DNA of 64,000 nucleotides from an uncultured bacterium (GCA_913053845.1 CAJXGD010000006.1:713-64712), one strand, 5' to 3'; counted from the first letter of the stretch, positions 5,891-63,962 are shown. Made by a program: numbers and translations. The notes: generated by a model not told the origin, from the letters alone.

Positions 5891-5954
5891 CCGGAACCGG
5901 GTAGGGGCGAGTGCTCACTCGCCTCTACCCCTTTCTGGACAGCTAGTCCGATAG

Positions 5955-30941: not shown

Positions 30942-32267
30942 CTAACTCTGCCGGCTCAGCCAGATAATGCGCCGCAGCACTTCTAAGTGGTTGAGCAGAG
31001 CCAGGGTTACTAGGGTGAAAAACGGCAAATTGAGCAACGCGCCCAAGGAGAGCAGCAACAGGCGCAGGTCGCGACCCAATCTCAAGGGCCGTCGGCCTTG
31101 CTCTAGGCGTTTCTTGAGGAATTGATCGTACTTATCGGCCGTATAACTGTTGAGCAGCACCCCAGAGAGAGCGGCCAGCGCCCAGAGCCAGCTAGCGGCC
31201 GATGGTGCAATCAGCCAGAGATGATAGCTCAGGCCGCCGATGAGCAGGCCATCGGCGTAGCGGTCGAGCACCGCATCCAACCAGCCGCCGAACTCGCTGG
31301 CCTGGAACTTGAGCCGAGCGATCTCGCCGTCGCAGCCGTCGCTGATCGAGGCTATCTGGGCCAAGAGGCCGCCAGCGGCCAAGGCGGCGTAGCCCGGTAG
31401 GGCCATGAGCAGCGCACCCAACAGGGCCAGCCCGAAGGAGAGCAGCGAAAGATGATTGGGCCGCAGTCGTCTAGATCGAACCAGCCAGCGGCTCAGTTGC
31501 AGGGAGAACGGTCGATTGAGATAACGGGAGACCGGCCCATCGGTCGGCTTCTTGAGTTGATCCAGCAGCGCGGCTTCGGCGGCGCGCAAGGCCTGAGGCG
31601 TGTCCACATCGAGCCAGAAGCGGCCCTTGACCTCCAGGGCCTTGGCGCGTCCGGCCTGGGCCAAGCGTCGCACGCCGGCCGAGAGCGATCCATCCTCCGG
31701 CAGCGTTGCAGCCAGCGCCGGGAATATCCGGGGCGAACAGAGGAAGATGCCAGTATCAAAAGCATCATAGCTCGGCAACTCCTTGCCGATATCAACGATG
31801 CGGTCGCCCTGGAGTCGCACCTTGGTCGCGTCGTCCAGGTCGCAGTATCCTGCCGGCGCGCGGTCCACCGCCAGCAGCAGGTCCGCGCCGTCGAGCGAAG
31901 CGGCCTCGAGCTCGGTGATAATCTGGGGATCGAAGAGATGATCGCCCATCAGCAACAAGAAAGGCTCTTCCAGCAGGTCTTGGGCGGCCAAGACGGAGCT
32001 GCCGTTGCCCTGCTGCCAGTGGGGGTTTGCCAGATAATGCAGTTGCACGCCCCAGCGCCGGCCATCCCCCAAGGCCTGCCGGAGCCCGGCACCCTGGTAA
32101 CCGGTGACCAGGTAGAAGTCACGCAGACCCGCTTGCCTGGCCGTGCGGATCACTCGCTCGATCAGCGGCAGGCCCAGCAGGCGGGCCAGCGGTTTGCTCT
32201 GTGCTTTAGCCCGCAACCTCCGCCCGGCCCCAGCGGCTAGGACCAAGCACTTCGTCGCTCTCTTCAT
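30942..32267 (-). CDS. bifunctional CTP:inositol-1-phosphate cytidylyltransferase / di-myo-inositol-1,3'-phosphate-1'-phosphate synthase (IPCT/DIPPS)
   Basis: N-terminal sugar-phosphate nucleotidyltransferase fold (CLVLAAGAGRRL..KPLARLLGLPLIERVI); C-terminal membrane domain with CDP-alcohol phosphotransferase motif DGEIARx8GGWLDAVLD; adjacent to the MIPS gene. Confidence 0.75.
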   Translation of the reverse strand: MKRATKCLVLAAGAGRRLRAKAQSKPLARLLGLPLIERVIRTARQAGLRDFYLVTGYQGAGLRQALGDGRRWGVQLHYLANPHWQQGNGSSVLAAQDLLEEPFLLLMGDHLFDPQIITELEAASLDGADLLLAVDRAPAGYCDLDDATKVRLQGDRIVDIGKELPSYDAFDTGIFLCSPRIFPALAATLPEDGSLSAGVRRLAQAGRAKALEVKGRFWLDVDTPQALRAAEAALLDQLKKPTDGPVSRYLNRPFSLQLSRWLVRSRRLRPNHLSLLSFGLALLGALLMALPGYAALAAGGLLAQIASISDGCDGEIARLKFQASEFGGWLDAVLDRYADGLLIGGLSYHLWLIAPSAASWLWALAALSGVLLNSYTADKYDQFLKKRLEQGRRPLRLGRDLRLLLLSLGALLNLPFFTLVTLALLNHLEVLRRIIWLSRQS

Positions 32268-37404: not shown

Positions 37405-39060
37405 TCAAAGATCGTTGGTAAACAGGGTGATCTCATCCGTGCCGAAGCCGATGACCGCCAAGTCCGGGAAACCCTCGCGGTCGAAATCTCCCAGCGCAAT
37501 GCCCGCCGGAGTGCCTCCGGCATGAAGCAGCTTGCGCCCACCGGCCAGAAATTCCCCGCTCGCATCGCCTAGCAGCACCGCCAGCGTGTCGTTGCCCCCG
37601 TTGGCCGTCACCAGGTCAAGCTGCCCATCACCGTTCAGATCGGCACTGGCCACCGCACGGACCTGTGAGCCCACCGGGATGATCACCCGCTGGTTAAAAT
37701 GGCCGCCGGGAGCACCGTGCAAGATGGTCAGATCGCCATCGGCAGAGTCGGCCACCGCCAAGTCCAGCCACCCATCGTGGTTGAAGTCGCCGGCAGCCAA
37801 CGCGGCCGGCCCACGGCCCACCGCCGTCTCCAGCGGCGCGGCAAAGTCGCCCCGACCGTCACCGATCAAGATGGCTACCGTATCGCCGAAGAAGTCGGCC
37901 ACGGCCAAATCCAGTCGCCCATCACCGTTGAAGTCGCCTGAGAGCAGCGCACTGGGCCAGCGGCCGGCCGGGGCATAGCGGGCCGGGGCGAAGCCACCTT
38001 GCCCATCTCCCAGCAGCAACCCGATGCGATTCTGCGGGGCATCGGCCACGGCCAGATCGAGATGGCCATCGTCGTTGAAGTCCCCCCAGCTCAGCGCCGA
38101 GACCGCTCCGGCCACCGGGAAATAGCGCAGTGGCTGAAAGCGCCCGGCCCCGCTGCCTAGCGCCAGGGAAATTTCTCCGGTCTCGAAGCTGCCGCTGGCC
38201 AGGTCCGGCAAACCGTCCTCATTGAAATCGGCCACTACCAGCGAAGAGGGCGCGTGGCGCACCGGGATATTGCCGATCTGGCTGAAGCGGCCATCGGGTT
38301 GCTGGATCAGCACCGAGATGTCGTTGCTGGCGATATTGGCCACTGCCAGGTCGAGTCGCCCGTCGCCGTCCAGATCGGCGCTGACCACTGCCACCGGCGA
38401 GCGACCCACCGGCTGGACCAGTTTCTCGCTGAAGCCGAGCGCCTGAATCTCCACCACGGCGCGATCGCTCAGGTCGGCCGCGCCGGTGACCGTCAGTGTG
38501 GCCCGGTAGCGCCCCCCACGGGCGTAACGGTGGCTCACTCGCATACCGTCGGCTCCACTGCCATCGCCAAACCCCCAATGATAGCCGATGATAACCCCGG
38601 CGTTGGGGCCGTCGGCCGGCCCCAGGGAACCGGAGCCGTCGAAGGTGACCGTCAGGGGCGCCCAGCCCCCGGTGGGACTGGCGATCAGCAGCGCCCGGGG
38701 CACCAGGTCTCCCACGGTGATGGTCAGCGCGGCCGCCCCGCTGCGCCCCCGATCGTCGCTGACCAGCAGGCGCACCCGATAGCGGCCCTTGCGGTTATAA
38801 CTGTGGATCACCTGGGAGCCTTGCGCTTGGCTACCATCGCCCAAACTCCATTGATAGCGCACCAGGGTTGCTCCGGCCGTGCCGCTCACCGAGGCTGAGC
38901 CGTCCAGATGCACCACCAGCGGCGGGGGCCCGCTGATCGGCGAGGCCTTGATCACCGCCAGCGGTGCCCCTGGCGGGCCCATCAGGCCACAGCCGCTCAA
39001 TACCAGCACCAGGCTGGCGCAGATGAGCATCAGTTTGAGCCAATTGGCAGCTTGTTTCAC
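37405..39060 (-). CDS. secreted lipoprotein with two PKD domains and FG-GAP/VCBS (integrin-alpha-like) repeats
   Basis: Lipobox LVLSGC; two PKD signatures (PLVVHLDGSASV..YQWSLGDGS; PLTVTFDGSGS..YHWGFGDGS); seven or more repeats of DFNxDGxLDLAVA. Confidence 0.7.
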   Translation of the reverse strand: MKQAANWLKLMLICASLVLVLSGCGLMGPPGAPLAVIKASPISGPPPLVVHLDGSASVSGTAGATLVRYQWSLGDGSQAQGSQVIHSYNRKGRYRVRLLVSDDRGRSGAAALTITVGDLVPRALLIASPTGGWAPLTVTFDGSGSLGPADGPNAGVIIGYHWGFGDGSGADGMRVSHRYARGGRYRATLTVTGAADLSDRAVVEIQALGFSEKLVQPVGRSPVAVVSADLDGDGRLDLAVANIASNDISVLIQQPDGRFSQIGNIPVRHAPSSLVVADFNEDGLPDLASGSFETGEISLALGSGAGRFQPLRYFPVAGAVSALSWGDFNDDGHLDLAVADAPQNRIGLLLGDGQGGFAPARYAPAGRWPSALLSGDFNGDGRLDLAVADFFGDTVAILIGDGRGDFAAPLETAVGRGPAALAAGDFNHDGWLDLAVADSADGDLTILHGAPGGHFNQRVIIPVGSQVRAVASADLNGDGQLDLVTANGGNDTLAVLLGDASGEFLAGGRKLLHAGGTPAGIALGDFDREGFPDLAVIGFGTDEITLFTNDL

Positions 39061-39128: not shown

Positions 39129-41339
39129 TCAGCGCCTGACTGCCAGCTTCTGCACCCCGCTGCTGACCGTCTGCCCCTGGGCGGTGTCAACCGTGACCAG
39201 ATAGAGATAGACCCCCGTGGCCACCGGGGCGCCCAGCCGATCCTGCTCTGACCAGACCAGCGCTCGCCTGATCGTGGCGCTGAAGCTGAAGACCACCCGC
39301 CCGGCCAGGTCGAATACCTGCAAGTGCCAGCCCCTCCCAGCCGCGCCGGGGGCCATAAGCGCCGACCAGAGATATCCTGAGGCCCGGCGCTGCGGTCTGA
39401 GCGCGGCCAGCTCGGCCCGCAGGGTTCGGCCCTGGCCGACCACTATCAGGCTGTCCCCCTCGACCGGCCGGCCATTGATCGTGCCCTTTAAGCGGTAGCG
39501 TCCTGGCTTGATCTCCGAGGAGAGCACCAGCGCGTAACGCAGCCAGATCGTCCGGCCCGGCGCGGCGGCCGGCCAACTCCAGGCCGAGCTTCCGGGGTCA
39601 AACTCTCCCCCGCCATTGTCCAGCGGCACGATGCGAAAACCCGCAGGCGGCTTCTCCTGCAGTCGCAGGCCGCCGAAGCGCCCCAGTGGCATTTGCAAAT
39701 TGATCGAGACGACCAGTCGCTCGCCAGGTCGGACAGCGGAGCCCGTATGCTGAACGTGACGTGCGGCGCTGGGCCAACCTAGGATCAAGTCTAGCTCGCC
39801 GGCCCCATAGGTGACGTCGGGACCGGGCGGGCCCAGATCGGTGGCGTCCCCGCGCAGAGCGGCCTTCAGTTGGGCGGTGCTCCAGCCGGGATGCTGCGAG
39901 AGCAGCAGTGCGGCCGCTCCGGCCACGTGCGGCGCGGCCGCCGAGGTCCCCAAGAAACCGCCGAATCTATTAGAGAAGAAAAGATTGTCTACCCCATCGG
40001 GTCCGACTAAATCCGGCTTGATGCGCCCATCGAAGGTGGGCCCCAGGGCGCTGAAGCTCTCCTGAGGGCCGCTGGACCAGCGCTCGCGATTGACCGCTCC
40101 CACGGCCAGCGTGCAGCTGCAGTCGGCCGGAGCGACGAGGCTGCCGTGGGGTATGGGCTTCTCAAAATATGCTCCCGACTCGATCTGAAAGAGCCGCAGC
40201 CACATCGGCCGCGTGGCCCAGTGGGCGCGGACCCGCACGAAATAGACACCGGGATGGTCAGCCACATATTGCAGCTCCTCGCGTGGTGGCTGGGTCCCCG
40301 TCTGGCGATTCTGAGAGCTGGCCAGCACCTTGCCACGGGCATCGGTGAGATAGAGATCGTAATCCTGATCGGTCGTCGGCCAGTCGTTCCAGACCAGCAC
40401 CAGGTCAATCAGGCCGCCAAGCGGCACTTTCAGCGCTAGCGACTGCTTCCCCAGGGCGAACTCGGCCCAACCGTCGTGGTTGCTGTCGCGGAAGCGGCCT
40501 ATCCAGTGCGCCTGTGCTTGATTGCCCGCCGCGTTGACCCAAAGGATCCCCGCGGCACGAGCTCGACGCGCTATCTCATTGATCAAACCCGTCCCGTCGT
40601 CGAAATCGGTATCGAACCAACCGAGCGAGCAATTGATCACCCGAACACCTAGCCGAATCGCATCATCCACGGCGTTCTCTAAGTCAACCTCATCGCCGAT
40701 CTTCATCAGATATAGCTGAGCACGCGGGGCCATCTCATGGACGATCTCGGCCACGGCGCTGCCATGCTCGCCGCCGGTCAGCAGTCCTTTGCCGGTATAG
40801 TCTTTTTTGAAGACGATCGCGCCGGCCGCCAGCACCCGGTGCTTCACCGCCCAGTAGAGCCCGGAGAAGCCGGCATCTATGATGGCTACCTTGACCCCTT
40901 GACCTTGGAAACCCTGGCTCTGGAAGAGCAGGCCACCGGTGGGCAGCAGCCCTTGGCTGAGCTGCAACTGACCCAGCGGCGCCCAGCGGTAGGGCCGACG
41001 GATATATCTGATGCCGGGGACACGGGTGGCGATCTCATTCAAGCGATCCAGCGGCAGGCGGGCGCGCAGCAGGTCGGATGAGCGCGCCTCGATCTGGGCG
41101 CCCAACTCTCGCAAGGCCGCTTGATCTATCGCGCCGCTCGCGCCTCCCAGGGGTTCGATGATCGCCGTGACAGAAGCACCCGGCCGGCTTGTGGCAGCCA
41201 GCCGGGCCAGCGAGCTCTCCAATTTGCCGCTCGGCGGAGGAGGGCCGGCTAAAGCGATGAAGGAGAGCGCAGCAAAGAGCAGCAGTAGGGGCGAAGCATT
41301 CGCAAGCCAAGAACGGCGTATCTTCTTGAATGCTTGCAC
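39129..41339 (-). CDS. subtilisin-like serine peptidase (S8) with T9SS-type C-terminal sorting-domain-like tail
   Basis: 736 aa; catalytic D (VAIIDAGF), H (HGSAVAEIV), S (GTSAAAPHVAGAAALL); C-terminal ~80 aa LQVFDLAGRVV..GVYLYLVTV..GQTVSSGVQKLAVRR shared with the three downstream paralogs; GTG start. Confidence 0.8.
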   Translation of the reverse strand: MQAFKKIRRSWLANASPLLLLFAALSFIALAGPPPPSGKLESSLARLAATSRPGASVTAIIEPLGGASGAIDQAALRELGAQIEARSSDLLRARLPLDRLNEIATRVPGIRYIRRPYRWAPLGQLQLSQGLLPTGGLLFQSQGFQGQGVKVAIIDAGFSGLYWAVKHRVLAAGAIVFKKDYTGKGLLTGGEHGSAVAEIVHEMAPRAQLYLMKIGDEVDLENAVDDAIRLGVRVINCSLGWFDTDFDDGTGLINEIARRARAAGILWVNAAGNQAQAHWIGRFRDSNHDGWAEFALGKQSLALKVPLGGLIDLVLVWNDWPTTDQDYDLYLTDARGKVLASSQNRQTGTQPPREELQYVADHPGVYFVRVRAHWATRPMWLRLFQIESGAYFEKPIPHGSLVAPADCSCTLAVGAVNRERWSSGPQESFSALGPTFDGRIKPDLVGPDGVDNLFFSNRFGGFLGTSAAAPHVAGAAALLLSQHPGWSTAQLKAALRGDATDLGPPGPDVTYGAGELDLILGWPSAARHVQHTGSAVRPGERLVVSINLQMPLGRFGGLRLQEKPPAGFRIVPLDNGGGEFDPGSSAWSWPAAAPGRTIWLRYALVLSSEIKPGRYRLKGTINGRPVEGDSLIVVGQGRTLRAELAALRPQRRASGYLWSALMAPGAAGRGWHLQVFDLAGRVVFSFSATIRRALVWSEQDRLGAPVATGVYLYLVTVDTAQGQTVSSGVQKLAVRR

Positions 41340-41356
41340 GAATGCTTCGCCCCTAC
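41285..41356. repeat. perfect 19-bp inverted repeat (AGTAGGGGCGAAGCATTCG / CGAATGCTTCGCCCCTACT) spanning the S8 gene start
   Basis: Arms at 41285-41303 (inside the signal-peptide codons) and 41338-41356 (start codon, RBS region and 3' end of the upstream gene), with a ~34-nt loop; same arm sequence as the element at 10306-10349. Confidence 0.5.
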
Positions 41357-41358
41357 TC

Positions 41359-43113
41359 TTATCTGAGGACGACCAGCTTTTTGACCCGACTGCTGAAGCT
41401 CTGTCCGTCCGCGCCCCGGACCGTCACGATATAGAGATAAACCCCGTTGGCCAGCGGCCGACCGGAGCGATCCAGCGGCCGGAAACGCAACCGGTTGCCG
41501 CTCCCTTGTAGGTCTGCGAGGGGACGGCCGTTCAGGCTGAAGAGCTGTAGCCTGACGTCGGCGATCCCCGCTCCTCGGACCTGCAATTCCGCCCGGCCAC
41601 CTGACAGCGAGCGCAGGCCGATGGAGCTTATCGCTAGAGGTGCCGCTGCCGCTGTGGGCTCTCTCATCATGCTCTGGCTGACTCCCAGGAAGCGGAGCAG
41701 GTCGCCCCAGAGGCCACCTACTGCCAGACTGGGCGGGCCGGGGGGCAGAAGCGAATTGTCCCAGCGGTTACGGTCCAGACCGGCGCTGAATAGCTTGCAA
41801 CTACCGGCCACTTTGACCCAGTAGCCCTTAAAATCATTGAGCGGCTCGCTGGGATCAATCGGCGCGTACTTGCTGCCATCGTACCACCAGGGCCCCGATT
41901 GCAGTTGACAGCCGCGAAAGATCGAGCCAATACGATTCCAGCTCTTGGAGGAGGAGATCAGATTCCAACCCTGATGCAACTCCAGATCCTGACGGACATT
42001 GGTGCCGGTCGCCTGCAGGGTGCAGGCGTTATCCACCTTGAGCCAATAACCCTTGGCCGGCTCCAGCTTGTTGGCCTGGATATAGCGGCTGCCGGTCCAC
42101 TCCCAAGGGCCGCTGGCGAACTGACAGGTGCCCTTCAGATCAGCCGGTGCAATGGTGCCCACCGGTGAGGAGATCATGTTCCAGCCGGCGTCGAGCCGCA
42201 AGATCAAGCCGGAGATCGGCACTGGAGGAGGCGGCGGCGCACCGGAGGTGGGCGGGCCGGACTCGCTGATGATGCTAAAACTGTCGGTGAGTGGGCGGTC
42301 ACTCAGGAAATTCGAGCCACAGTTGATCGGGATATCCCGTTGGCAAGGGCCGTTCTCTTTCAAAGGCGTATCGTCGGCCACCGCCAGCCGCAGCGAGACG
42401 TTAATCCGGCCGGCTGGAGCGTTGGAGCCGATGTCCACAGTGAAGTAGAGCAGCAGCGGCGTCGTCTCGCCACCCAGGCCGGCGGCGTAGACCGGCTGTA
42501 GGTTTTGGCTGGTCATGATCCAATCTTGCTGGCGCCCGAAGCGGGCGACGGCCTGCCCATTGCTGTTGGTAAATTGAACCGGCACCCGGGCTATCAGCTC
42601 GTTGGCCTGGAAGAGGATGCCATCTCCACCTCCACTAAAAGGAGGGAGAGGGAAGCCATCGGTGTAGACACGCAAAGTCTTGAGTGCCTTGGCGCCCGGT
42701 CCGCTAAAGGTGATCACCCCGCCCTTGATGCCGGTGGCCAGGCCATCGGCTCCGCCGGTCTTGGCCGGCTTGGGCGTGCAGCCTAAGATCGCCAAGCCGC
42801 CGGAGATGGCCATCGGCGTGCCCGGCAGAGAAGGGACGATCTTAGCGGTAGTATTATTCAGCACTCCGCCGTCACAGATGCCCACCACAATGGCCAGCGC
42901 CTCATCGGTGCCCGGGTTGATCTGTCGCGCTTGATCCCGTGTCAGCAGGTTGGTCAGGTGAATCACCTGGATGTCGCTCTCCGCTAGGCCGCTGCCGGCC
43001 AGATAGCCTGGTAAAGGCGCCGCTGAGGCCCTCCCGCCGCCGGTCCCAAATCCCACCAGCAGCAGGACGGACGACAGCAGCGCCACCAGAACAGTCCGCA
43101 TGCTATACTTCAT
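41359..43113 (-). CDS. secreted repeat protein, paralog 1 (shared N-terminal domain, 2 Trp/Cys-rich modules, T9SS-type CTD-like tail)
   Basis: 584 aa; signal peptide; N-terminal domain ~65% similar to paralog 2; two modules of the form GWNMISSPV..C..GPWEW.G..Y..A..LEPAKGYWLKV..C; CTD ..GVYLYIVTVRGADGQSFSSRVKKLVVLR. Confidence 0.6.
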   Translation of the reverse strand: MKYSMRTVLVALLSSVLLLVGFGTGGGRASAAPLPGYLAGSGLAESDIQVIHLTNLLTRDQARQINPGTDEALAIVVGICDGGVLNNTTAKIVPSLPGTPMAISGGLAILGCTPKPAKTGGADGLATGIKGGVITFSGPGAKALKTLRVYTDGFPLPPFSGGGDGILFQANELIARVPVQFTNSNGQAVARFGRQQDWIMTSQNLQPVYAAGLGGETTPLLLYFTVDIGSNAPAGRINVSLRLAVADDTPLKENGPCQRDIPINCGSNFLSDRPLTDSFSIISESGPPTSGAPPPPPVPISGLILRLDAGWNMISSPVGTIAPADLKGTCQFASGPWEWTGSRYIQANKLEPAKGYWLKVDNACTLQATGTNVRQDLELHQGWNLISSSKSWNRIGSIFRGCQLQSGPWWYDGSKYAPIDPSEPLNDFKGYWVKVAGSCKLFSAGLDRNRWDNSLLPPGPPSLAVGGLWGDLLRFLGVSQSMMREPTAAAAPLAISSIGLRSLSGGRAELQVRGAGIADVRLQLFSLNGRPLADLQGSGNRLRFRPLDRSGRPLANGVYLYIVTVRGADGQSFSSRVKKLVVLR

Positions 43114-43199
43114 GTTGACCTCCCCTTGGATTCATGTTGAGGGATAAATGCCTCGCAGCTTCTTTATACCTCAACCGGATAAGGGGAGGCACGACGGTC

Positions 43200-45425
43200 C
43201 TAACGTAATAGTAGGAGTTTCCGCACCTCGCTGCTGGTCGCCTGTCCGTCCGCGCCCTTGACCGTCACGATATAGAGATAGACCCCGTTGGCCAAGGGTC
43301 GCCCCTGCCGGCCGAGGGTGGCCAGATGCAACCGGTTGCCTCTCCCGCGCGCCTGGGCGACCAACGTGCCGGCCAGATCATAGAGGCGCAGCTCACTGTG
43401 CCCGATGCCTCTGCCAAGCACCTGCAGCTCAAGGCCTGACCCTACCTGACTGAGCCGAACGCCTTCCAGACGCAAGGGCACAGCCTGCTGTGCTATAGAG
43501 CTGAATTCAGAGGCCGGTGCTGCGCCCTTGCCGGACAGTCCTTGGCTGTTCACGTTGCAGCCCTGGCTCACCTTGGCCCAGTAGCCCTTAAAGCCGTTTA
43601 GCGGCGTGCCAGGGGCGATCTGCTTATACTGCTTGCCATTCCACCACCAGGGACCGGAGAGCAGCGTGCAGCCGCCGGTATTGAGCTGGTTCCAGCTCCC
43701 GGAAGATGAGATCAGATTCCAGCCGGGGCTCAGGGCCAGGCTCTGGGGAAAGCTCCCTGACGAAGGTGGAGTTTGCAGGGTGCAAGGCACTCCAACCTTG
43801 ACCCAATAGCCCTTAGCCGACTCCAGGGTAGATGCTTGCTCGTAACGGGTTCCGGTCCACCACCAGGGGCCGCTGCTGAAGAGACAGTCGCCCTGCACTG
43901 CCGAGAGGGGCACCGAGCGGATCGGAGAGGAGATCATGTTCCAGCCGACATGTAATTTGAGCGTGGGGCTCAAGCCGCCGGGAGGGGCGGGGGGTTGCGA
44001 TTGTAGGGGCGAAGCATTTTCAACTGGCAGCCGGGGTATGGGGTTGAGCTCAGGGACCCATGCTGCGCCCTTATCTTGCCCCTGCGCGCTCTGGCTGCTG
44101 ACGCTGCAACCGGCCCCGACCTTGACCCAATAGCCCTTGAAATCCTCCATGGAGGTGCCGGAAGCCACCTGCTGGTACCGGGTGCCGTCGTACCACCAGG
44201 GACCGGAGAGCAGCGTGCAGCCACCGGTATTAAGCTGGTTCCAACTCCCAGATGACGAGATCAAATTCCAGCCGCCGACCAAGCTTAGACTCTGCGGGGC
44301 GTTGCTGCCTGAGGCCTGCATGGTGCAAGCTCCGGCCACTTGGACCCAATAGCCCTTGGCCGGCTCGATGGTGCCCGCCTGCTGGTAGCTGGAGCCGCTC
44401 CACCACCAGGGGCCACCGGTGACGCTGCAGTTGCCTTGCAGCGAGCTGAGCGGCACCGAGCCCACCGGCGAGGAGATCATGTTCCAGCCGGCGTGCAGAC
44501 TCAATGAGAGCCCTCCGCCTGGCGGCGCCGGCGGCGGGGTTCCGCCACCTGGAGCGGCCCCGCCGACGATCTCGAAGCTGTTCATCTCCGGGCCGCTCTT
44601 CATGAAGTTCGAGCCACAGTTGATTCCTAACAACAGGAACCGAGCACAGATGCCGCCGGCTCCTTGCGCGGTATCATCGCCGGCGCCAACTCCCAAGGCG
44701 ACGTTGACACGGCCGCTGGTGGCATCTTGCCCGATGTCCACGGTGAAGTAAAGTAACTCCGGTCGCGTCTGACCGTTTACCCCAAATGCAACGACGGGTG
44801 CGCCGTTGCGGGCGGAGAGGATCTGCTCTTGAGTGCGACCGAACTGGGCGATCGCCTCGCCGGTGCCCGTATTGAACCGGGCGGTCACCTGTTGGATCAG
44901 CTCCGCCGGCTCAAAGAGCCGCCCATTGCCGCCGCCCTTGTAGGGACCTACCGGTGGCAGGACCGGGGCATCCACATACATACGCACGGTGCGAATGAAC
45001 CTGGCTCCCGGTCCGCTGAAGACGAGAATCGCGCTGTTGACTCCGGTGGCTAGCCCGTCCGAGCCACCTGTCAAGGCGCCTCCTGAGGGTATGCAGGGAA
45101 TGGCTGCCAGGCCGCCGGCGATGGTCGCGGTGGCTCCGGCGACCGGCACCAGCAGGGTGGCGCTGGTGTTGGCCAGTACGCCCCCGTCGCAGATGCCGAC
45201 CATGATGGCCAGCACCCCGCTGGTGCCAGGTGTGATCTGGGTACCGCGATTTCGGGTGAGCAGTCCGGAGATATGAATCGTCTGAATGTCGGACTCGGCG
45301 TTGCCGCTGCCGTTGGAGAGATTCGGAATGGGTGAGGCCCCGGCAGTTGCAGCCGGACCGAATGAGGTAATGATTAGTGCCAATACTACGAAGGCTAAGC
45401 TGAACGCCTTGAGTTTGAGATTCAT
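43200..45425 (-). CDS. secreted repeat protein, paralog 2 (4 Trp/Cys-rich modules, T9SS-type CTD-like tail)
   Basis: 741 aa; signal peptide; the same N-terminal domain as paralog 1; four modules (two near-identical pairs separated by Pro/Gly linkers); CTD ..GVYLYIVTVKGADGQATSSEVRKLLLLR. Confidence 0.6.
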   Translation of the reverse strand: MNLKLKAFSLAFVVLALIITSFGPAATAGASPIPNLSNGSGNAESDIQTIHISGLLTRNRGTQITPGTSGVLAIMVGICDGGVLANTSATLLVPVAGATATIAGGLAAIPCIPSGGALTGGSDGLATGVNSAILVFSGPGARFIRTVRMYVDAPVLPPVGPYKGGGNGRLFEPAELIQQVTARFNTGTGEAIAQFGRTQEQILSARNGAPVVAFGVNGQTRPELLYFTVDIGQDATSGRVNVALGVGAGDDTAQGAGGICARFLLLGINCGSNFMKSGPEMNSFEIVGGAAPGGGTPPPAPPGGGLSLSLHAGWNMISSPVGSVPLSSLQGNCSVTGGPWWWSGSSYQQAGTIEPAKGYWVQVAGACTMQASGSNAPQSLSLVGGWNLISSSGSWNQLNTGGCTLLSGPWWYDGTRYQQVASGTSMEDFKGYWVKVGAGCSVSSQSAQGQDKGAAWVPELNPIPRLPVENASPLQSQPPAPPGGLSPTLKLHVGWNMISSPIRSVPLSAVQGDCLFSSGPWWWTGTRYEQASTLESAKGYWVKVGVPCTLQTPPSSGSFPQSLALSPGWNLISSSGSWNQLNTGGCTLLSGPWWWNGKQYKQIAPGTPLNGFKGYWAKVSQGCNVNSQGLSGKGAAPASEFSSIAQQAVPLRLEGVRLSQVGSGLELQVLGRGIGHSELRLYDLAGTLVAQARGRGNRLHLATLGRQGRPLANGVYLYIVTVKGADGQATSSEVRKLLLLR

Positions 45426-45448
45426 CTATGTTCCCCCTTGATTATACG

Positions 45449-45565
45449 CCGGGGATTGAAATCCCCGGCTACGGTGAGGCATAAAACCCCTACGGGGTTC
45501 CAGGTCGTGAACCCTCGTGAGAGGGTTTCCCTGACGTCACGTAGCCGGGAAATTCATTTCCCGGT
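45449..45565. repeat. structured intergenic element, copy A (four hairpins plus a closing long-range helix)
   Basis: Hairpins CCGGGGA-TTGAAA-TCCCCGG, CCCC-TA-GGGG, AACCCTC-GTGA-GAGGGTT, CCGGGAAA-TTCA-TTTCCCGG; CCGGCTACG pairs with the distal CGTAGCCGG; ~80% identical to copy B at 61361-61474 with compensatory changes. Confidence 0.45.
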
Positions 45566-45568
45566 CTC

Positions 45569-47197
45569 CTATCGCAGCACGACCAGCTTCTTGACCTCAC
45601 TGGTGATCATTTGTCCGTCCGCGCTCTTGACAGTCACGATGTAGAGATAGACACCATTGGCCAGCGGTCGTCCCTCGCGACTCAAAGCCATCAGGCGCAG
45701 CCGGTTCCCTGTCCCTTGGGCCTGCACGATCAACCGGCCGGCCAGAGTGTAGAGACGCAGCTCGGTGCTCTCGATGGCGCTGCCAGCCACTTGCAAGCGG
45801 ATGCTGGAACCCTGAGCGCTCAAGCGCACGCTTTGCAATTGCAAGGGTGCGGCGCCGGCTGAGGGAGGCCTGGGGAACCCTCCAAATGCAGGGGGCATGC
45901 CGTTACTCCTCTCCTGAACCACCGCCGACTGGCTGCTCACGGTACAACCGCCGCCCACTTTCGCCCAATAACCCTTGAAGCCCTCCATCGGCGTGGCAGG
46001 AGGCACCTGCTGATACCGCGTGCCATCGTACCACCAGGGGCCGGAGAGCAAGGTGCAGCCTCCAGTGTTCATCTGGTTCCAGCTCCCGGATGAAGATATC
46101 AGGTTCCAGCCGCTCACCAAGCTCAGGCTCTGCGGAGATGAGCTGCCGCCCGCCTGCATGGTGCAAGGGCTACCCACTTTGACCCAGTAGCCTTTGGCCG
46201 GCTCCAATACAGAAGCCAACTGATAGGCGGTACCATTCCACTCCCAGGGGCCGCCGCTGAAGGAGCAGTTGCCCTGCAGTGAAGAGATAGGTGAGGAGCT
46301 GACCGGGGTGGAGATCATGTTCCAACCGGCGTGCAAGCTCAGTGAGAGTCCACCTGCGCCCGGCGGAGGTGGCGGAGCCCCGCCACCCGATCCACCACCA
46401 GGCGCGGTTCCACCGATGATGTGCAGCGTGATATTACTCCCTTGCGGATTGGCCGAGGCGCCGAAGCTGTCGCTCACCCGCGCCCCGCCTACCGGTCCGC
46501 CTCCGGCCAGCGCTCCGGGGATGTCGCCGGCCACCGCTTCCAGTTGTAGGGCAAAGTCCGAGCCGCTCACCGGGTTGGGTCCAATCTTGACCACGGCCAA
46601 CAGCGAGACGGCACAGAAGTTAGCCCCTGCCACCCCCACCGTCCTGCACAATGTTCCTCCTCCCACCGAAGTGAGCGTAAAGACTGGACTGGCCCCACCG
46701 TTGGAGAAGAGCGCCTTGCCGGCGTCCAAATCGGCACCGGTGTAGGTTCTGCCCACCGGCAGGTCAATGCCGGGGTCGAAGCGTCCGTTGAAGTTGCTGT
46801 CCTGATAGATGGTCATCTCTTGGATATCGGCATCGCGGGCGTTGGTAATGGTCGTGGTGATCAGCGCGCCCATCACGTTGAGCGGCCACATACTCCCTGG
46901 GGTACAGTTGCCTGATGCCACGACGCCGGTGTGGGCCACGTAGTCATTGGCCAGCACCCAGGCGCCGGCCACCGCCGTGCTATTGGGACTGACGGTGAGC
47001 GAAGAGGGTATGCCGGTGGTGGTGAACTGATCGGTGGCCAGCACTGCGCCGGTGGGACAGCCGCTGGCGGGGACGAGCCCCGGCAAGCTGAGGTAGGCCG
47101 AGCCGTTCACCCCCAACAGGAAGGTCGCCAGCAGTCCAACCAGCAAAGCAGCCATCGGCCATCTCAGTCGGGAACGGTCTATCATCTTGAGCCTCAT
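45569..47197 (-). CDS. secreted repeat protein, paralog 3 (distinct N-terminal domain, 2 Trp/Cys-rich modules, T9SS-type CTD-like tail)
   Basis: Start set at MRLKMIDRSRLRWPMAALLVGLL (signal peptide; the ORF track extends to 47290); different N-terminal domain but the same module pair and CTD ..GVYLYIVTVKSADGQMITSEVKKLVVLR. Confidence 0.6.
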   Translation of the reverse strand: MRLKMIDRSRLRWPMAALLVGLLATFLLGVNGSAYLSLPGLVPASGCPTGAVLATDQFTTTGIPSSLTVSPNSTAVAGAWVLANDYVAHTGVVASGNCTPGSMWPLNVMGALITTTITNARDADIQEMTIYQDSNFNGRFDPGIDLPVGRTYTGADLDAGKALFSNGGASPVFTLTSVGGGTLCRTVGVAGANFCAVSLLAVVKIGPNPVSGSDFALQLEAVAGDIPGALAGGGPVGGARVSDSFGASANPQGSNITLHIIGGTAPGGGSGGGAPPPPPGAGGLSLSLHAGWNMISTPVSSSPISSLQGNCSFSGGPWEWNGTAYQLASVLEPAKGYWVKVGSPCTMQAGGSSSPQSLSLVSGWNLISSSGSWNQMNTGGCTLLSGPWWYDGTRYQQVPPATPMEGFKGYWAKVGGGCTVSSQSAVVQERSNGMPPAFGGFPRPPSAGAAPLQLQSVRLSAQGSSIRLQVAGSAIESTELRLYTLAGRLIVQAQGTGNRLRLMALSREGRPLANGVYLYIVTVKSADGQMITSEVKKLVVLR

Positions 47198-47319
47198 ATC
47201 TGCCTCCTTTGCGTAGAGTTGATGATCACGAGATTCGGCATGGAGCATTCTAGCAGAGAGATGGGGAGAGGACCAAATAGCTAAAATCAAGAGCAGAGGC
47301 TACCTATGCGGTGCCCCGC

Positions 47320-58461: not shown

Positions 58462-58685
58462 CCACTGGTCACAACTTAAGGCATTAAATGGTGATTTCAA
58501 GGCGTTTTCCCCACAGCTCCTTCTCCCTCAGGGAGAAGGTTGGGATGAGGGTGTGCAAGCCGTTTGCTTCACCCAACAGGACCAACCCTCACCCCGACCC
58601 TCTCCCAAACATGGGAGAGGGAGCAAGCACACGCCGCTAAAATGATGTTCCCAACGGGATAAACACCCTTAAGTTGTGACCAGTG
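58462..58685. repeat. MITE-like element: ~185-bp structured core bounded by 19-20-bp terminal inverted repeats (CCACTGGTCACAACTTAAGG .. CCTTAAGTTGTGACCAGTG)
   Basis: Terminal inverted repeats at 58462-58481 and 58667-58685; internal hairpins CCCTCAGGGAGAAGG and CCCTCTCCCAAACATGGGAGAGGG; no coding capacity. Confidence 0.4.
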
Positions 58686-58699
58686 CTCAGGGCGTCCAG

Positions 58700-58933
58700 C
58701 TAAAATCCTGGGGTTATTTTCTCTAATCGTTCGGCAATCCATACTTTAATGATTGATTGGCGGGTGACTCCTAGGCGTTTTGCTTCTCTATCCAGTGATT
58801 GGATCATCCAAAGGGGGAAGTCTACATTGACCCGCTTTTGTTCCTGGGCGGGTCGGCGTGCCTTGGAAAGATCCAAATGCTTGGAGATATCCTGTCCTTC
58901 ATCGAATGCACGATCGAACTCTTCAGCCTTCAT
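58700..58933 (-). CDS. CopG/ribbon-helix-helix DNA-binding protein (BrnA-like antitoxin; no cognate toxin found)
   Basis: 77 aa from MKAEEFDRAF (the ORF track extends upstream to 59191); C-terminal block VNVDFPLWMIQSLDREAKRLGVTRQSIIKVWIAERLE is the BrnA/CopG RHH signature. Confidence 0.55.
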   Translation of the reverse strand: MKAEEFDRAFDEGQDISKHLDLSKARRPAQEQKRVNVDFPLWMIQSLDREAKRLGVTRQSIIKVWIAERLEKITPGF

Positions 58934-59022
58934 AAAGATAGACCTCCTCCCTACGAGATCGCCTGACGGAGATGATGCGCACCCCTCTCTGTTTCGCGGA
59001 AGGGACGAGGGAGGGGTCTTCT

Positions 59023-59517
59023 CTACCCCCCCGGCGCGCAGGGCACCACCGCGCTCAAGTGCCACCCTGCCCCATACTCGAAGCGATTGGCCAGATTGCC
59101 TTTGGCATCGTAGAGATAGGCCGAATCGCCGTTGGAGTCGCACCAGACGTACCTGAGCGTCCAAAAGAGGTCGGGCGTCTTGCCTTGGCATTTGGTGCTC
59201 GAATGGCCCAGCGCCTCCGGCCCGGAATGCACTCGAATCATCTGCTGGCTCTTGAGCACACAGTCCTGCGGGAACCGATAGGCGATGCCTATCGTCTTAT
59301 TCGGCCGATGCGCCCAGAGCGTCCAGCCGGAGATATCCACCGGCTTGTCGCCCTGGTTGGCGATCGAGACCATCTCGTCTCGGCTGTACTGGCGAATGGT
59401 CACCACGCGCACCGCGTAGTGAGGCGCGTTCTTCTCCTGCGGCTTGGGTCCCAGCAGGAACCAACTGCCCAGGGTGATGGCCAGCAGCACAAGGGCGAGA
59501 ACTAATATTTTGGTCAT
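59023..59517 (-). CDS. secreted lamin-tail-domain (LTD) protein
   Basis: 164 aa; signal/TM N-terminus; LTD-like block EMVSIANQGDKPVDISGWTLWA..YRFPQDCVLKSQQMIRVHSG. Confidence 0.5.
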   Translation of the reverse strand: MTKILVLALVLLAITLGSWFLLGPKPQEKNAPHYAVRVVTIRQYSRDEMVSIANQGDKPVDISGWTLWAHRPNKTIGIAYRFPQDCVLKSQQMIRVHSGPEALGHSSTKCQGKTPDLFWTLRYVWCDSNGDSAYLYDAKGNLANRFEYGAGWHLSAVVPCAPGG

Positions 59518-59533
59518 AGACCCTCCTTAAGCC

Positions 59534-61147
59534 TTACGGCCCCTTGGTGATCGTGGCCGTATATATATTCTGGTTGCGGCAGCCTTGGGTGAGCGTCTCC
59601 AGCTTCTTCGGATCGCAAGGCGGATTGGTCACCGGCTGCGGCTTGACGTCCCGATTGTCCGTCCAGATGACATGGGTCTTCCCTCCAGCCGAAGCGATCG
59701 AGATGTAGTCGCCGATGAAGGGCACCCGGCCCCCGCCAAACATCTTCAAGTTAGGGTCGAAAGAGCGATCTGTGACCCGGATGCTCTCAGATGCCGGGAA
59801 GTGGACCGGGCAGCCGACGGGCGCCTCGGCATAATAAACGTCCAAACGCCTCATCAAGGGGTTCTTGGGCGAGAATTGCGGATCGTTGCGGCTGTCATAC
59901 CAGGCGACCTTGACCAGGCCGTCGGCCACGGTCACCGTGGGCATGACCTGGTAGCCGGTCGTTGCCGGAGCCACCACTGCCGGCTTGCTCCAGCGCAGGC
60001 CCTGATCGGCCGAGCAGGAGATGACTATCTGGGAACCCTGGTCGGTCAGCTTCTCATCCCAGACGATATAAACGTTCTGGCCATCGGAGGCGGCGCTGGG
60101 GAAGCTGCGATGACGAAAACCCGGCGGCACGGTGGCATCCTCGAACACCTGATCGAAGGGCCGGATCTTCTGAATGGGAAAGACCGCCAAGAATGACCGT
60201 CCTGCGTCATTGGAAACGGACATGCTGATGCTCTCCCGCTGGTCGCCGGCCAGCTCCTGGCAGCCCTTAAAGCTGCGTACGAAATCGCAGATATTCTGGT
60301 CGCGCCAGAAGAGATAAACGTTGCCCTTGGCGTCGGTGGTAATGGTGCAACCTCGCGCCTCGGCGGGGAAACCGGCCAGGCTGGTCTTGGGAGCCAGGAC
60401 CACCTGAGGGGGTGAAAAGGTCTTGCCGTGATCGGTGGAGCGACTGAAGAGGATGACCGCCGGACTGCGTGTCCAGCCAACATAGATGTTCCCGTCGCTC
60501 GGGCCGCCGGAGTTGTCAATGGCCATACAGGGCTTGTCGCTGAAGGCGGTGGTCGGCTCGAGGGTCACCAGAGCAGTCCCCATATATTTGGCGCCATGAT
60601 CGGCGTAGCGGGCGACGATCACCCCTTCTTTGGAGGAGTTGCCGTAGCCGAAATTGGCCGGGATGATCAGGCCCAGATAGAAAGCGTTGCCCTGACTGTC
60701 GAAGGCCAGGACGGGATCACTCATGCCCTGGAAGCCATGAGCCGGCGAGTCGCGGCCTTCAGATGAGATGTCTCCCGGGTAGCCGGGGACGAAGCTGTTG
60801 TTCCAAGTCTTGCCTCCGTCGGTCGAGCGATAGTAGCCCATCCAGACGGTGTATTTGAAGGACCGTGATAATTCCAAGCGATAGTCATTGGCACCGGCAA
60901 CCAAGATATTGGGGTTGGTGGGATCAACGGCGATGGTGGGCTCGTTCTGCGGAAGATTATTGCAATCGAAATTGGGGCCGAAACCGGTATGACAAGGCTG
61001 ATCGTTGTTGTCATGGATAACCTTGATATTGGGACCTACGATCAAAGCACTGCTGCCACCATATAGAGGGGCACTGCCGAGCCCCAGGCTAACGGCAGTG
61101 ATCAAGAGGACCAGCGTCAGCCAGCGCCAACTGGAGATATGTTGCAT
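59534..61147 (-). CDS. secreted BNR/Asp-box repeat protein (sialidase-like beta-propeller)
   Basis: 537 aa; signal peptide; Asp-box motifs STDGGKTW, STDHGKTF, SNDAGRSF, SADQGLRWS spaced ~60-100 aa apart. Confidence 0.7.
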   Translation of the reverse strand: MQHISSWRWLTLVLLITAVSLGLGSAPLYGGSSALIVGPNIKVIHDNNDQPCHTGFGPNFDCNNLPQNEPTIAVDPTNPNILVAGANDYRLELSRSFKYTVWMGYYRSTDGGKTWNNSFVPGYPGDISSEGRDSPAHGFQGMSDPVLAFDSQGNAFYLGLIIPANFGYGNSSKEGVIVARYADHGAKYMGTALVTLEPTTAFSDKPCMAIDNSGGPSDGNIYVGWTRSPAVILFSRSTDHGKTFSPPQVVLAPKTSLAGFPAEARGCTITTDAKGNVYLFWRDQNICDFVRSFKGCQELAGDQRESISMSVSNDAGRSFLAVFPIQKIRPFDQVFEDATVPPGFRHRSFPSAASDGQNVYIVWDEKLTDQGSQIVISCSADQGLRWSKPAVVAPATTGYQVMPTVTVADGLVKVAWYDSRNDPQFSPKNPLMRRLDVYYAEAPVGCPVHFPASESIRVTDRSFDPNLKMFGGGRVPFIGDYISIASAGGKTHVIWTDNRDVKPQPVTNPPCDPKKLETLTQGCRNQNIYTATITKGP

Positions 61148-61232
61148 AGCAGGATGCCTCCTTTGCTCTTCTGCGTGATGCTATACCGATGTACATTGAT
61201 CATATCGCATGTTTTTTGTAGGGGCAACCCCC

Positions 61233-61303
61233 CGTGGTTGCCCTGAATCCTGGGCGAGCGCCCTGGGCAGGCACAGGGGCCTGCCCCTACAAATTGGGTT
61301 CAC
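61233..61303. repeat. composite palindromic element bounded by GTAGGGGC .. GCCCCTAC with internal hairpins
   Basis: GGGCAACC-CCCCGT-GGTTGCCC and GGCAGG..CCTGCC hairpins; GCCCTGAATCCTGGGC occurs twice within 100 bp; related copies at 63880-63962 show compensatory changes (CAGCC/GGCTG vs CAACC/GGTTG). Confidence 0.4.
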
Positions 61304-61360
61304 CATGTCCCATTCGTTGTGGGGGCGAATCTTGTATTCGCCCTGAATCCTGGGCTAACA

Positions 61361-61474
61361 CCGGGGATTAAAATCCCCGGCTACGGTAAGGCAGAAAACC
61401 CCTACGGGGTTCCGGCCGTTAACCCTCAAAGAGGGTTTCCCAGCTTTTCGGTAGCCGGGAGATTTATCTCCCGG
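61361..61474. repeat. structured intergenic element, copy B (same four-hairpin architecture as 45449-45565)
   Basis: CCGGGGA-TTAAAA-TCCCCGG, CCCC-TA-GGGG, AACCCTC-AAA-GAGGGTT, CCGGGAGAT-TTA-TCTCCCGG; the fourth stem differs from copy A by compensatory pairs (GAAA/TTTC vs GAGAT/ATCTC). Confidence 0.45.
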
Positions 61475-61493
61475 TTCATTTAACCGTCCCTCA

Positions 61494-61533
61494 CACAAAA
61501 ACAAAAGCCCCGGATCGTACCCGATCCGGGGCT
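61494..61533 (-). terminator. Rho-independent terminator of the 61554-62897 gene
   Basis: Minus-strand stem AGCCCCGGATCG-GGTA-CGATCCGGGGCT followed by TTTGTTTTTGTG, 20 nt after the stop codon. Confidence 0.6.
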
Positions 61534-61553
61534 TGTCATGCACGTTTGAATGG

Positions 61554-63879: not shown

Positions 63880-63962
63880 CAGGGCGACCACGTAGGGTCG
63901 CCCCTACATTGTTTACGGTGGTTGTGTTTTTCTGTAGGGGCAGCCCTATGTGGCTGCCCTGC
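63880..63962. repeat. palindromic elements of the GTAGGGGC/GCCCCTAC family upstream of the SLH gene
   Basis: GGGCGACC-ACGTAG-GGTCGCCC followed by CCCTACA, then TGTAGGGGCAGCC-CTATGT-GGCTGCCCTG; co-varies with the 61233-61262 copy. Confidence 0.35.

Follow-up and report, generated by a model that had tools for sequence, protein, structure and literature searches.

The 117-nt element at positions 45449-45565 of a 64,000-nt stretch of DNA from an uncultured bacterium (the whole stretch is called the window here) is very probably a REP-class repeat, non-coding and non-autonomous, built as a tail-to-tail dimer with its GTAG tags inward (REPIN/BIME-like). We observed its anatomy, its dispersal, its linkage to the gene of a Y1 enzyme in three lineages, the joint change of repeat and enzyme, and the absence of the window's second copy from a syntenic relative. 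By analogy with E. coli TnpA-REP and IS200/IS605 TnpA, a resident IS200-type Y1 enzyme most likely spreads this GTAG-hairpin dimer. A reading of the window made from the sequence alone (the sequence-only reading) had taken the element for a candidate structured RNA or, alternatively, a REP/MITE-like repeat; the second option is supported by the GTAG-REP anatomy, the dispersal and the flanking of Y1 genes.

Anatomy and place of the two copies in the window

The two copies (A and B) lie, to the nucleotide, where the sequence-only reading had put them, and the features used below are as follows (R1 denotes the covariance model of the element; satellites are the small inner hairpins).

45449..45565, plus strand: copy A, whole REP dimer of 117 nt (R1 score 143.8 bits), between genes 45569-47290 (minus strand) and 43200-45425 (minus strand)
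45449..45472, minus strand: copy A left REP, GTAG plus palindrome GTAGCCGGGGATTTCAATCCCCGG (0 mismatches; -11.4 kcal/mol as single-stranded DNA, z -4.8)
45485..45499, plus strand: copy A inner hairpin 2, AACCCC-TAC-GGGGTT, satellite of the left module (stem invariant in 14 copies, loop varies)
45510..45527, plus strand: copy A inner hairpin 3, AACCCTC-GTGA-GAGGGTT, satellite of the right module (stem 100% paired, loop varies)
45541..45564, plus strand: copy A right REP, GTAG plus palindrome GTAGCCGGGAAATTCATTTCCCGG (0 mismatches; -8.4 kcal/mol as single-stranded DNA, z -4.4)
61361..61474, plus strand: copy B, whole REP dimer (R1 score 120.5 bits, with the R1 match ending at 61475), also present in strain contig L099
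61361..61384, minus strand: copy B left REP GTAGCCGGGGATTTTAATCCCCGG (pattern match, perfect hairpin, single-stranded DNA fold)
61397..61411, plus strand: copy B inner hairpin 2 (from the sequence and the alignment with copy A)
61421..61437, plus strand: copy B inner hairpin 3, loop AAA (from the sequence and the alignment with copy A)
61451..61474, plus strand: copy B right REP GTAGCCGGGAGATTTATCTCCCGG, bearing the compensated A-T to G-C pair (pattern match, single-stranded DNA fold)

Copies A and B are collinear and match at 96 of 118 aligned columns (81%, in agreement with the ~80% reported before), and model R1 found no third copy in the 64-kb window. The sub-blocks of 18-19 nt common to A and B occur at only these two places in the window (~0.01-0.04 expected by chance). 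Copy B is also carried by L099, a contig that is 99.2% identical to window positions 58593-61604.

Both ends of the element consist of a GTAG tetranucleotide and a 20-nt perfect palindrome, and the two ends are mutually inverted with the GTAGs facing inward. The left unit reads GTAG-CCGGGGATTTCAATCCCCGG on the minus strand and the right unit GTAG-CCGGGAAATTCATTTCCCGG on the plus strand. The four palindromes have perfect stems of 8-9 bp; folded as single-stranded DNA, the four REPs reach -8.4 to -11.4 kcal/mol (z -4.4 to -5.6) and leave the GTAG unpaired. The degenerate pattern GTAGCCGGGRAWTTNAWTYCCCGG matched four times in the window, at both ends of both copies, and nowhere else (0 matches expected). 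Since this one pattern fits all four units and only these, the long-range helix of the sequence-only reading is formed by two facing GTAG tags: the four hairpins of that reading stand, and its helix is CTAC(G) pairing with (C)GTAG, an invariant tag that shows no covariation. The left half aligns with the reverse complement of the right half, and the element is an inverted pair of one ~55-nt module, with the order 8-bp hairpin with a 4-nt loop, CTACG, 9-11 nt, and a small AAACC...GGTT hairpin. A scan of the window for GTAG followed by a perfect hairpin returned 13 sites vs. ~1.5 in shuffled sequence; a second REP family, GTAG-GGGC...GCCC, is among these 13 sites.

The folding of A and B is far better than that of shuffled sequence on both strands (z -4.8 to -7.2), and the fold scores are equal on the two strands, as expected of DNA palindromes. 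The claim that differences between A and B are compensatory holds for a single pair. Seventeen of the 20 differences fall in loops and linkers (the hairpin-3 loop is indeed GTGA in A and AAA in B), two make up one compensated pair of hairpin 4 (A-T in A, G-C in B), and one is uncompensated, namely CGTAG in A vs. GGTAG in B, with the long-range helix 9/9 paired in A and 8/9 in B.

Both copies are intergenic and flanked by minus-strand genes, as had been read before, and the element is antisense to these genes. Copy A nearly fills its gap: it starts 23 nt upstream of the ATG at 45425 (gene 43200-45425, minus strand) and ends 4 nt past the stop codon of gene 45569-47290 (minus strand). Copy B is placed in a 406-nt spacer and is separated by 213 nt from the start of the downstream gene at 61147, so that the earlier statement that the copies sit directly upstream of genes is right for A and not for B. 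A terminator-like hairpin of the upstream gene (61505-61534, minus strand) precedes copy B, which lies downstream of it. No promoter-like site was found at copy A, and the sole promoter-like site of the copy B spacer (61227-61199, minus strand) is located downstream of copy B. GC skew shows no trend across the window. A coding reading of the copies was rejected: the ORFs over them run on opposite strands (45438-45644, plus; 61355-61582, minus), and copy lengths vary by 1-3 nt within loops.

Minus-strand transcripts that cross the copies would be predicted to carry very stable hairpins as a side effect. Effects of E. coli REPs on mRNA decay or translation have been reported. Because copy A lies 4 nt past one stop codon and 23 nt before the next start, it could by analogy affect mRNA decay or translation, which is speculation.

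Stem conservation and dispersal of the repeat

Representative genomes (185,579) and viral contigs were scanned with patterns for the left half of the element and gave 0 matches each. The same kind of scan of metagenome contigs recovered five true loci, all in sediment assemblies; a sixth match (L001) was rejected as a chance match inside a coding region. A covariance-model scan for further copies had been proposed in the sequence-only reading: model R1 together with BLAST revealed about 20 copies in those ~13 kb of contigs. In 1.33 Mb taken from 80 GTDB representative genomes, model R1 found 0 copies, so that the family is confined to a narrow lineage.

The copies in the metagenome contigs are full, single, 3'-truncated without the closing (long-range) helix, or arranged in head-to-tail arrays with a 140-bp period. 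Among full-length copies from four different metagenomes, the whole 117-nt unit, spacer included, is 86-95% conserved. The inner hairpins and the 67-nt spacer are strictly conserved, an observation for which known REP recognition offers no reason. In contigs with at least two copies all copies are co-oriented, some of these contigs being versions of one locus. Orientation relative to genes is mixed: in L003 and L004 the element immediately precedes DUF433-like genes in the sense direction, whereas it is antisense at the Y1 gene and lies between convergent genes elsewhere in L004. The metagenome copies lie between plausible genes, and some mechanically listed ORFs run into copies. The neighbouring genes are unrelated to one another and encode secreted proteins, toxin-antitoxin proteins or a transposase.

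In the main alignment (MAFFT, 14 full-length copies), the local hairpins are 100% paired; of their four compensated pairs, hairpin 1 holds two and hairpins 3 and 4 one each. Variation is concentrated outside the stems (9/58 variable columns in stems vs. 33/50 in loops and linkers; Fisher p about 1e-7). The four GTAG/CTAC pairs of the long-range helix are invariant in the 14 copies; its fifth pair is broken, without compensation, in 5/14. In the lineage whose Y1 protein is 75% identical (L015, see below), compensated changes were found in hairpins 1 and 3, with C-G replaced by T-A in hairpin 3. An alignment fitted to the covariance model (A4) yielded nine "compensated" pairs; it was discounted because three rows with non-homologous 3' parts had been forced onto the model, and the MAFFT count was used. 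By minimum free energy, copy A folds with its two arms paired to each other. As a structure for the family, this one long hairpin fits less well than the local hairpins: across copies it is 82.6% paired and shows no covariation above that of shuffles.

Covariation thus exists but is modest, and it fits hairpins recognised as single-stranded DNA. The stems are constrained, but with strand-symmetric pairing and a closing helix that is a sequence tag they provide no evidence for RNA over DNA. The sequence-only reading had argued for selection on structure, and this part is borne out by the protected and compensated stems; the cis-regulatory leader or sRNA that it derived from them is not. Most simply, and by analogy with known Y1 systems, the structure under selection would be a single-stranded DNA hairpin recognised by a Y1 transposase.

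Y1 transposase genes flanked by the repeat, and the host lineage

On metagenome contig L005, a 137-aa ORF (343-756, minus strand) matches the Pfam family Y1_Tnp with 78 bits and has arrays of the element on both sides. Its protein scores 71 bits with the NCBIfam IS200/IS605 model NF033573 (cutoff 55) and 24.5 bits with the REP_Tyr_transpos model NF047646, below the cutoff of 80. The RAYT motif NP(L/V)(R/K)xG is absent from the protein, in which VNRQKEHH follows Y115. Residues H55, H57, Y115, Q119, H122 and H123 are invariant in 13 homologues (HUH and Tyr-x3-Gln-x2-His-His). The best PDB matches are the TnpA proteins of ISDra2 and IS608, and no chain with a RAYT-type name is present among the matches at E<=1.

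Among 5.8 billion proteins, the search at E<=1e-10 yielded just 28 homologues, nearly all of them known from 1-2 contigs. To evaluate the prediction that Y1 genes of this kind are flanked by the repeat, homologues were picked by protein alone and their flanks were then checked for the element. The same element is present on both sides, within ~25 nt, of the genes for a 91% identical protein (L008) and for 75% identical proteins (L015/L016), which come from other metagenomes. The REPtron layout, a Y1 gene between repeats, is therefore seen in three lineages (L005, L008/L009 and L015/L016). The Y1 contigs of this clade (at least 75% identity) that carry the repeat are ~1 kb each and end in or near repeats.

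In three assemblies (L007, L010 and L017, among them an NCBI contig of 500 kb), homologues of 59-65% identity are all encoded downstream of a common DUF348/G5 gene; in L007 and L010 the Y1 homologue is in turn followed by a Wzy_C gene. This shared locus suggests vertical inheritance. The flanks of these distant homologues hold the same module with CTACG kept and with the stems CCGGGGAT/ATCCCCGG changed to GCGCCGGAC/GTCCCGCGC; the satellite stem AACCCC/GGGGTT is changed to AACCGGC/GCCGGTT (L010/L007). The flanking repeats are also found away from the Y1 gene. The GC content of the Y1 genes is lower than that of the surrounding chromosome. From these sequence comparisons, the Y1 transposase appears to behave like a fixed, single-copy gene even though it is IS200-like. 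No Y1 gene was found in the 64-kb window; L099, the strain contig with copy B, and Y1 contig L005 belong to the same WGS set (VAOU01).

Eight MAGs, five of which carry the label Candidatus Bipolaricaulota, encode proteins with 68-73% identity to the window's amino-acid ABC-transporter binding protein; Chloroflexota and Poribacteria come next (52-59%). A homology search with the BNR protein retrieved named relatives that bear the labels Fraserbacteria and Acetothermia. To judge from these two proteins, the host would be an uncultured lineage nearest Bipolaricaulota. An exact-sequence look-up of two flanking proteins gave no match, the BNR protein being matched by homology search.

One relative (L104) is syntenic with the copy B locus: the two genes beside the spacer have orthologues there at 65% and 42% identity, and the LTD gene downstream and the terminator hairpin are conserved as well. 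Its spacer is 151 nt long vs. 406 nt in the window and contains neither the element nor the second REP family. Contigs L100-L103 hold the BNR orthologue next to a different upstream gene, and L104 is the only syntenic one; among the 80 GTDB loci, the ABC-transporter operon alone is common with the window, and no orthologue of a flanking gene was found. No pair of filled and empty sites was found in close strains; the empty site is that of a relative at 65% protein identity.

Mechanism, rival readings and comparison with known systems

By analogy with E. coli TnpA-REP and IS200/IS605 TnpA, the Y1 enzyme would bind each REP folded as a hairpin on single-stranded DNA, and the GTAG left unpaired at the hairpin's foot may be part of what it recognises. 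The enzyme would cut and rejoin single strands and would in this way disperse and amplify the dimer in trans. Recognition of the folded hairpin would account for the conservation and compensation of stems rather than loops. The two copies of the window would then be products of such spread by a Y1 enzyme, placed in intergenic spacers.

Very stable predicted folds and stems that are protected and compensated could also belong to a structured RNA (a cis-regulatory leader of the secreted-protein genes, or an sRNA), and copy A does lie 23 nt from a start codon. We nevertheless regard this reading as very improbable. The folds are very stable on either strand, and both strands fold equally well; the closing helix is an invariant GTAG/CTAC tag whose sole variable pair is broken without compensation; and copies occur 3'-truncated without that helix or in 140-bp tandem arrays. 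The genes next to the copies are unrelated and the orientation to them is mixed. Copy A has no promoter-like site, copy B lies just past the terminator-like hairpin of the upstream gene with the only promoter-like site of its spacer downstream of it, and in L104 the orthologous gene has no element upstream. A weak, sub-threshold resemblance of the left half to Acido-Lenti-1 (20.9 bits vs. 37) speaks for an RNA, but no Rfam family reaches its gathering score and the element flanks a Y1 transposase gene in three lineages. Dispersal, orientation, tandem arrays, L104 and Y1 flanking together count against the leader or sRNA of the sequence-only reading, which came nearest in its aside on a recombination site.

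Recombination sites of another kind, the integron-like attC sites, separate gene cassettes and are bound by an integron integrase as folded single-stranded DNA; they resemble the element in length and in their imperfect dyad symmetry. Vibrio cholerae repeats of this kind are 123-126 nt long, and attC sites have the core sites RYYYAAC (R'') and GTTRRRY (R'). The copies are co-oriented within each contig, and in L003 and L004 they separate small toxin-antitoxin genes in the manner of a cassette array. The flanks of 14 copies, however, contain GTTRRRY at the 3' end in 0/14 and a fitting 5' heptamer in at most 1/14; the window copies are separated by 16 kb and have large chromosomal genes on either side; head-to-tail arrays with no gene between the repeats are not cassette-like; and the linked gene is that of a Y1 HUH transposase, with no integron integrase among the called genes. 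An attC site is thus an extremely remote prospect.

The reading closest to ours is a MITE derived from an active, autonomous IS200/IS605 element (a palindrome-associated transposable element), made of the fused left and right ends of an IS that continues to transpose as a unit, with no domesticated REP/RAYT-like system. It involves the same chemistry as a dimer spread by a resident enzyme, and the two differ solely in the autonomy of the transposase. The Y1 protein passes the IS200/IS605 model (71 vs. 55) and fails the RAYT model, it is without the RAYT-specific motif, its best solved relatives are the TnpA proteins of ISDra2 and IS608, and its genes are lower in GC than the chromosome around them. 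On the other side, complete dimers or arrays flank the Y1 gene on each side where a single left end and a single right end would be expected, Y1 protein clusters are found on 1-2 contigs each and not on many, the 59-65% homologues occupy the same chromosomal locus in three assemblies, and GTAG plus a palindrome is the REP signature (PMC3733652). On balance we judge the MITE reading unlikely and prefer a REP dimer served by a resident Y1 enzyme.

Within the preferred reading of a REP dimer, we suggest tentatively, and as a possibility rather than an expectation, that an IS200-type TnpA was domesticated independently, that the unit recognised is the ~55-nt module with an obligatory satellite hairpin and not a bare REP, and that the satellite, as its strict conservation and covariation would then indicate, serves as a second recognition or regulatory element, perhaps at the RNA level. 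If so, orphan "sRNA motifs" like Acido-Lenti-1 could be substrates of Y1 transposases.

These data suggest that (i) what had the appearance of a four-hairpin riboregulator with covariation is a REP-type repeat, which removes a false lead, as compensatory changes arise also in DNA hairpins recognised by HUH enzymes; (ii) REP/Y1-transposase systems, studied mainly in Proteobacteria, extend to an uncultured lineage that appears close to Bipolaricaulota; and (iii) a case is now documented in which the partner enzyme is IS200-like in sequence and appears to behave as a fixed single-copy gene. The repeats fragment metagenome assemblies and could serve as lineage markers. Current understanding is not overturned by this REP dimer family.

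None of the Rfam 15 families reaches the gathering threshold in the element, in line with the earlier failure to match it to any known RNA family; in the window only four tRNAs reach threshold. The best sub-threshold match is RF01687, Acido-Lenti-1 (20.6-21.4 bits vs. a gathering score of 37), and at such scores the element is not a member of that family. The likeness is confined to the left half, where the order of parts agrees: an 8-bp stem closed by a 4-nt loop is followed by CUA, about 9 nt of linker and a second hairpin of 5-6 bp; the related modules of L010 gave no match to Acido-Lenti-1. In Weinberg et al. (2010; PMC2864571), Acido-Lenti-1 is represented by a table row only. Given this likeness, Acido-Lenti-1 might itself be a REP-like module, which is a lead only.

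The closest described relatives are the GTAG-tagged REP dimers and BIME clusters; of the GTAG REPs, Di Nocera et al. (2013; PMC3733652) catalogued 24 families in Escherichia coli, Pseudomonas, Stenotrophomonas and others. In these, an unpaired GTAG adjoins one end of a 6-13-bp stem, and inverted dimers with units 20-100 bp apart are frequent, including heterodimers and the TT type with GTAGs inward. Spacers may hold stem-loops, dimers are reiterated in tandem, and Y1 genes are flanked by repeats ("REPtron"); the REPs are extragenic, mostly between unidirectional or convergent genes, and show complementary stem changes within a family (PMC3733652). The tag, dimer, heterodimer, spacer stem-loops, tandems and REPtron of that description are all present here, as are the extragenic location and the complementary stem changes. 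The stem and loop of our family are CCGGGGAT-TRAA-ATCCCCGG, and its likeness to the 24 families rests on the described anatomy and not on stem sequence. Two differences were noted: the TT dimer has a conserved, structured spacer of 67 nt, whereas TT spacers are variable as a rule of thumb (PMC3733652), and the host is uncultured, with one placed protein nearest Candidatus Bipolaricaulota, and is not a proteobacterium. With regard to recognition, binding and cleavage of single-stranded DNA by E. coli TnpA-REP depend on the hairpin and on every base of the GTAG (Messing et al., PMC3479197).

The enzymes of IS200/IS605 elements recognise sub-terminal hairpins on single-stranded DNA together with a 5' guide tetranucleotide. 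The Y1 partner is, like the IS608 and ISDra2 enzymes, a Y1 HUH enzyme with the His-hydrophobic-His and Tyr-x3-Gln motifs, and the strand-specific insertion of IS200/IS605 would agree with the shared orientation of the copies on any one contig. The ends of IS200/IS605 elements, in contrast, are not mutual inverted repeats and bracket the gene once, whereas inverted dimers or arrays lie on both sides of the gene here.

In REPIN-RAYT systems (Bertels & Rainey, 2011; Bertels et al., 2017; PMC5581495), a transposase that is single-copy and vertically inherited copies REP doublets (REPINs) as units. The present system differs from REPINs in that covariation favours two independent REP hairpins over one long hairpin, and from RAYTs in that the Y1 partner lacks NP(L/V)(R/K)xG, the RAYT-specific motif (Nunvar et al., 2010; PMC2817692), and scores as IS200-type. 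By description, this partner resembles the exceptional "IS200 Group 3", which has no duplicates and abundant flanking 16-mers (PMC5581495). The likeness to REPIN-RAYT systems lies in the organisation: inverted REPs and their spacer form the copied unit, the flanked transposase gene occupies a conserved locus, copies without the gene are dispersed, and repeat and transposase change together.

The bipartite module and its Y1 genes

The element (45449-45565 in the window) consists of a ∼55-nt bipartite module present twice in inverted orientation. The module comprises, in this order, a hairpin with a TGAA or TAAA loop, CTACG, a linker and an AAACC..GGTT hairpin; the latter, inner (satellite) hairpin is conserved. 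Y1 transposase genes of only 59-65% identity are flanked by the same module, in which CTACG and the TGAA loop of hairpin 1 are kept and the stems are wholly different:

L010 1751-2990, module with different stems beside a Y1 gene
L007 9740-10520, module with different stems beside a Y1 gene
L017 3892-4100, module with different stems beside a Y1 gene

The GC content of the Y1 genes is 4-13 percentage points below the chromosomal background (0.48-0.57 vs. 0.60-0.62), even at a conserved syntenic locus. The genes compared were:

L005 343-756, Y1 gene
L008 354-767, Y1 gene
L007 9879-10309, Y1 gene
L010 2205-2618, Y1 gene

The L007 gene (GCA_030603665.1, contig JAUVXJ010000001.1) is annotated as just 102 aa. 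Its frame seems to continue upstream as far as an ATG near 9879, which would give a full-length protein, and the short call is probably a gene-call start artefact.

Genes around copy A and elsewhere

Copy A lies between two of four tandem paralogous genes:

39129-47290, minus strand, four tandem paralogues (736, 584, 741 and 573 aa)

Their products have signal-peptide-like N-termini and share a C-terminal segment that ends in ...VKKLVVLR; in L008, the gene lying upstream of the Y1 transposase gene ends in the same C-terminus. No Pfam family was found for the three paralogues tested.

On the same strand, the ORF at 37405-39060 contains a 56-nt segment that occurs five times (37601-38391) at intervals of 147 or 294 nt. 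At the protein level it is a 49-aa tandem repeat, which may be FG-GAP-like, as in the large protein of L003. The ORF at 30942-32267 (minus strand) resembles the Thermococcales bifunctional inositol-1-phosphate cytidylyltransferase/CDP-inositol:inositol-phosphate transferase with a score of 271 bits, which falls short of the cutoff (580). The resemblance is a hint that di-myo-inositol-phosphate-type solutes are made.

In two related metagenome contigs (L004 299-2811 and L003 4430-5118), co-oriented repeats alternate with small toxin-antitoxin-type genes, assigned by eye as PemK/MazF-, RelE-, AbrB-, DUF433- and HEPN-like, and the arrangement looks like a cassette array.

A second palindrome family and the 5′ border of copy B

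The window also carries a second GTAG-tagged palindrome family, GTAG-GGGC(N)...GCCC, which was found in the related contigs L002 and L008 as well:

5901-5928, 29325-29352, 61218-61290, 61319-61343 and 63882-63959, family members
10306, 41285 and 44003, degenerate sites

The singleton form is self-complementary and tagged at both ends (GTAG...CTAC). The family also forms a dimer with the GTAGs outward (HH), directly adjoining copy B, and one with the GTAGs inward (TT).

The contig of a 99.2% identical strain (L099 270-285) differs from the window (61349-61361) precisely where copy B begins on its 5′ side, with CTAACACTAACA vs. CTAACA in the window. TAACA also precedes the element in 5 of ∼12 independent copies. 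Simple slippage may account for this, or the sequence may serve as a target or cleavage site comparable to those of IS200/IS605 elements.
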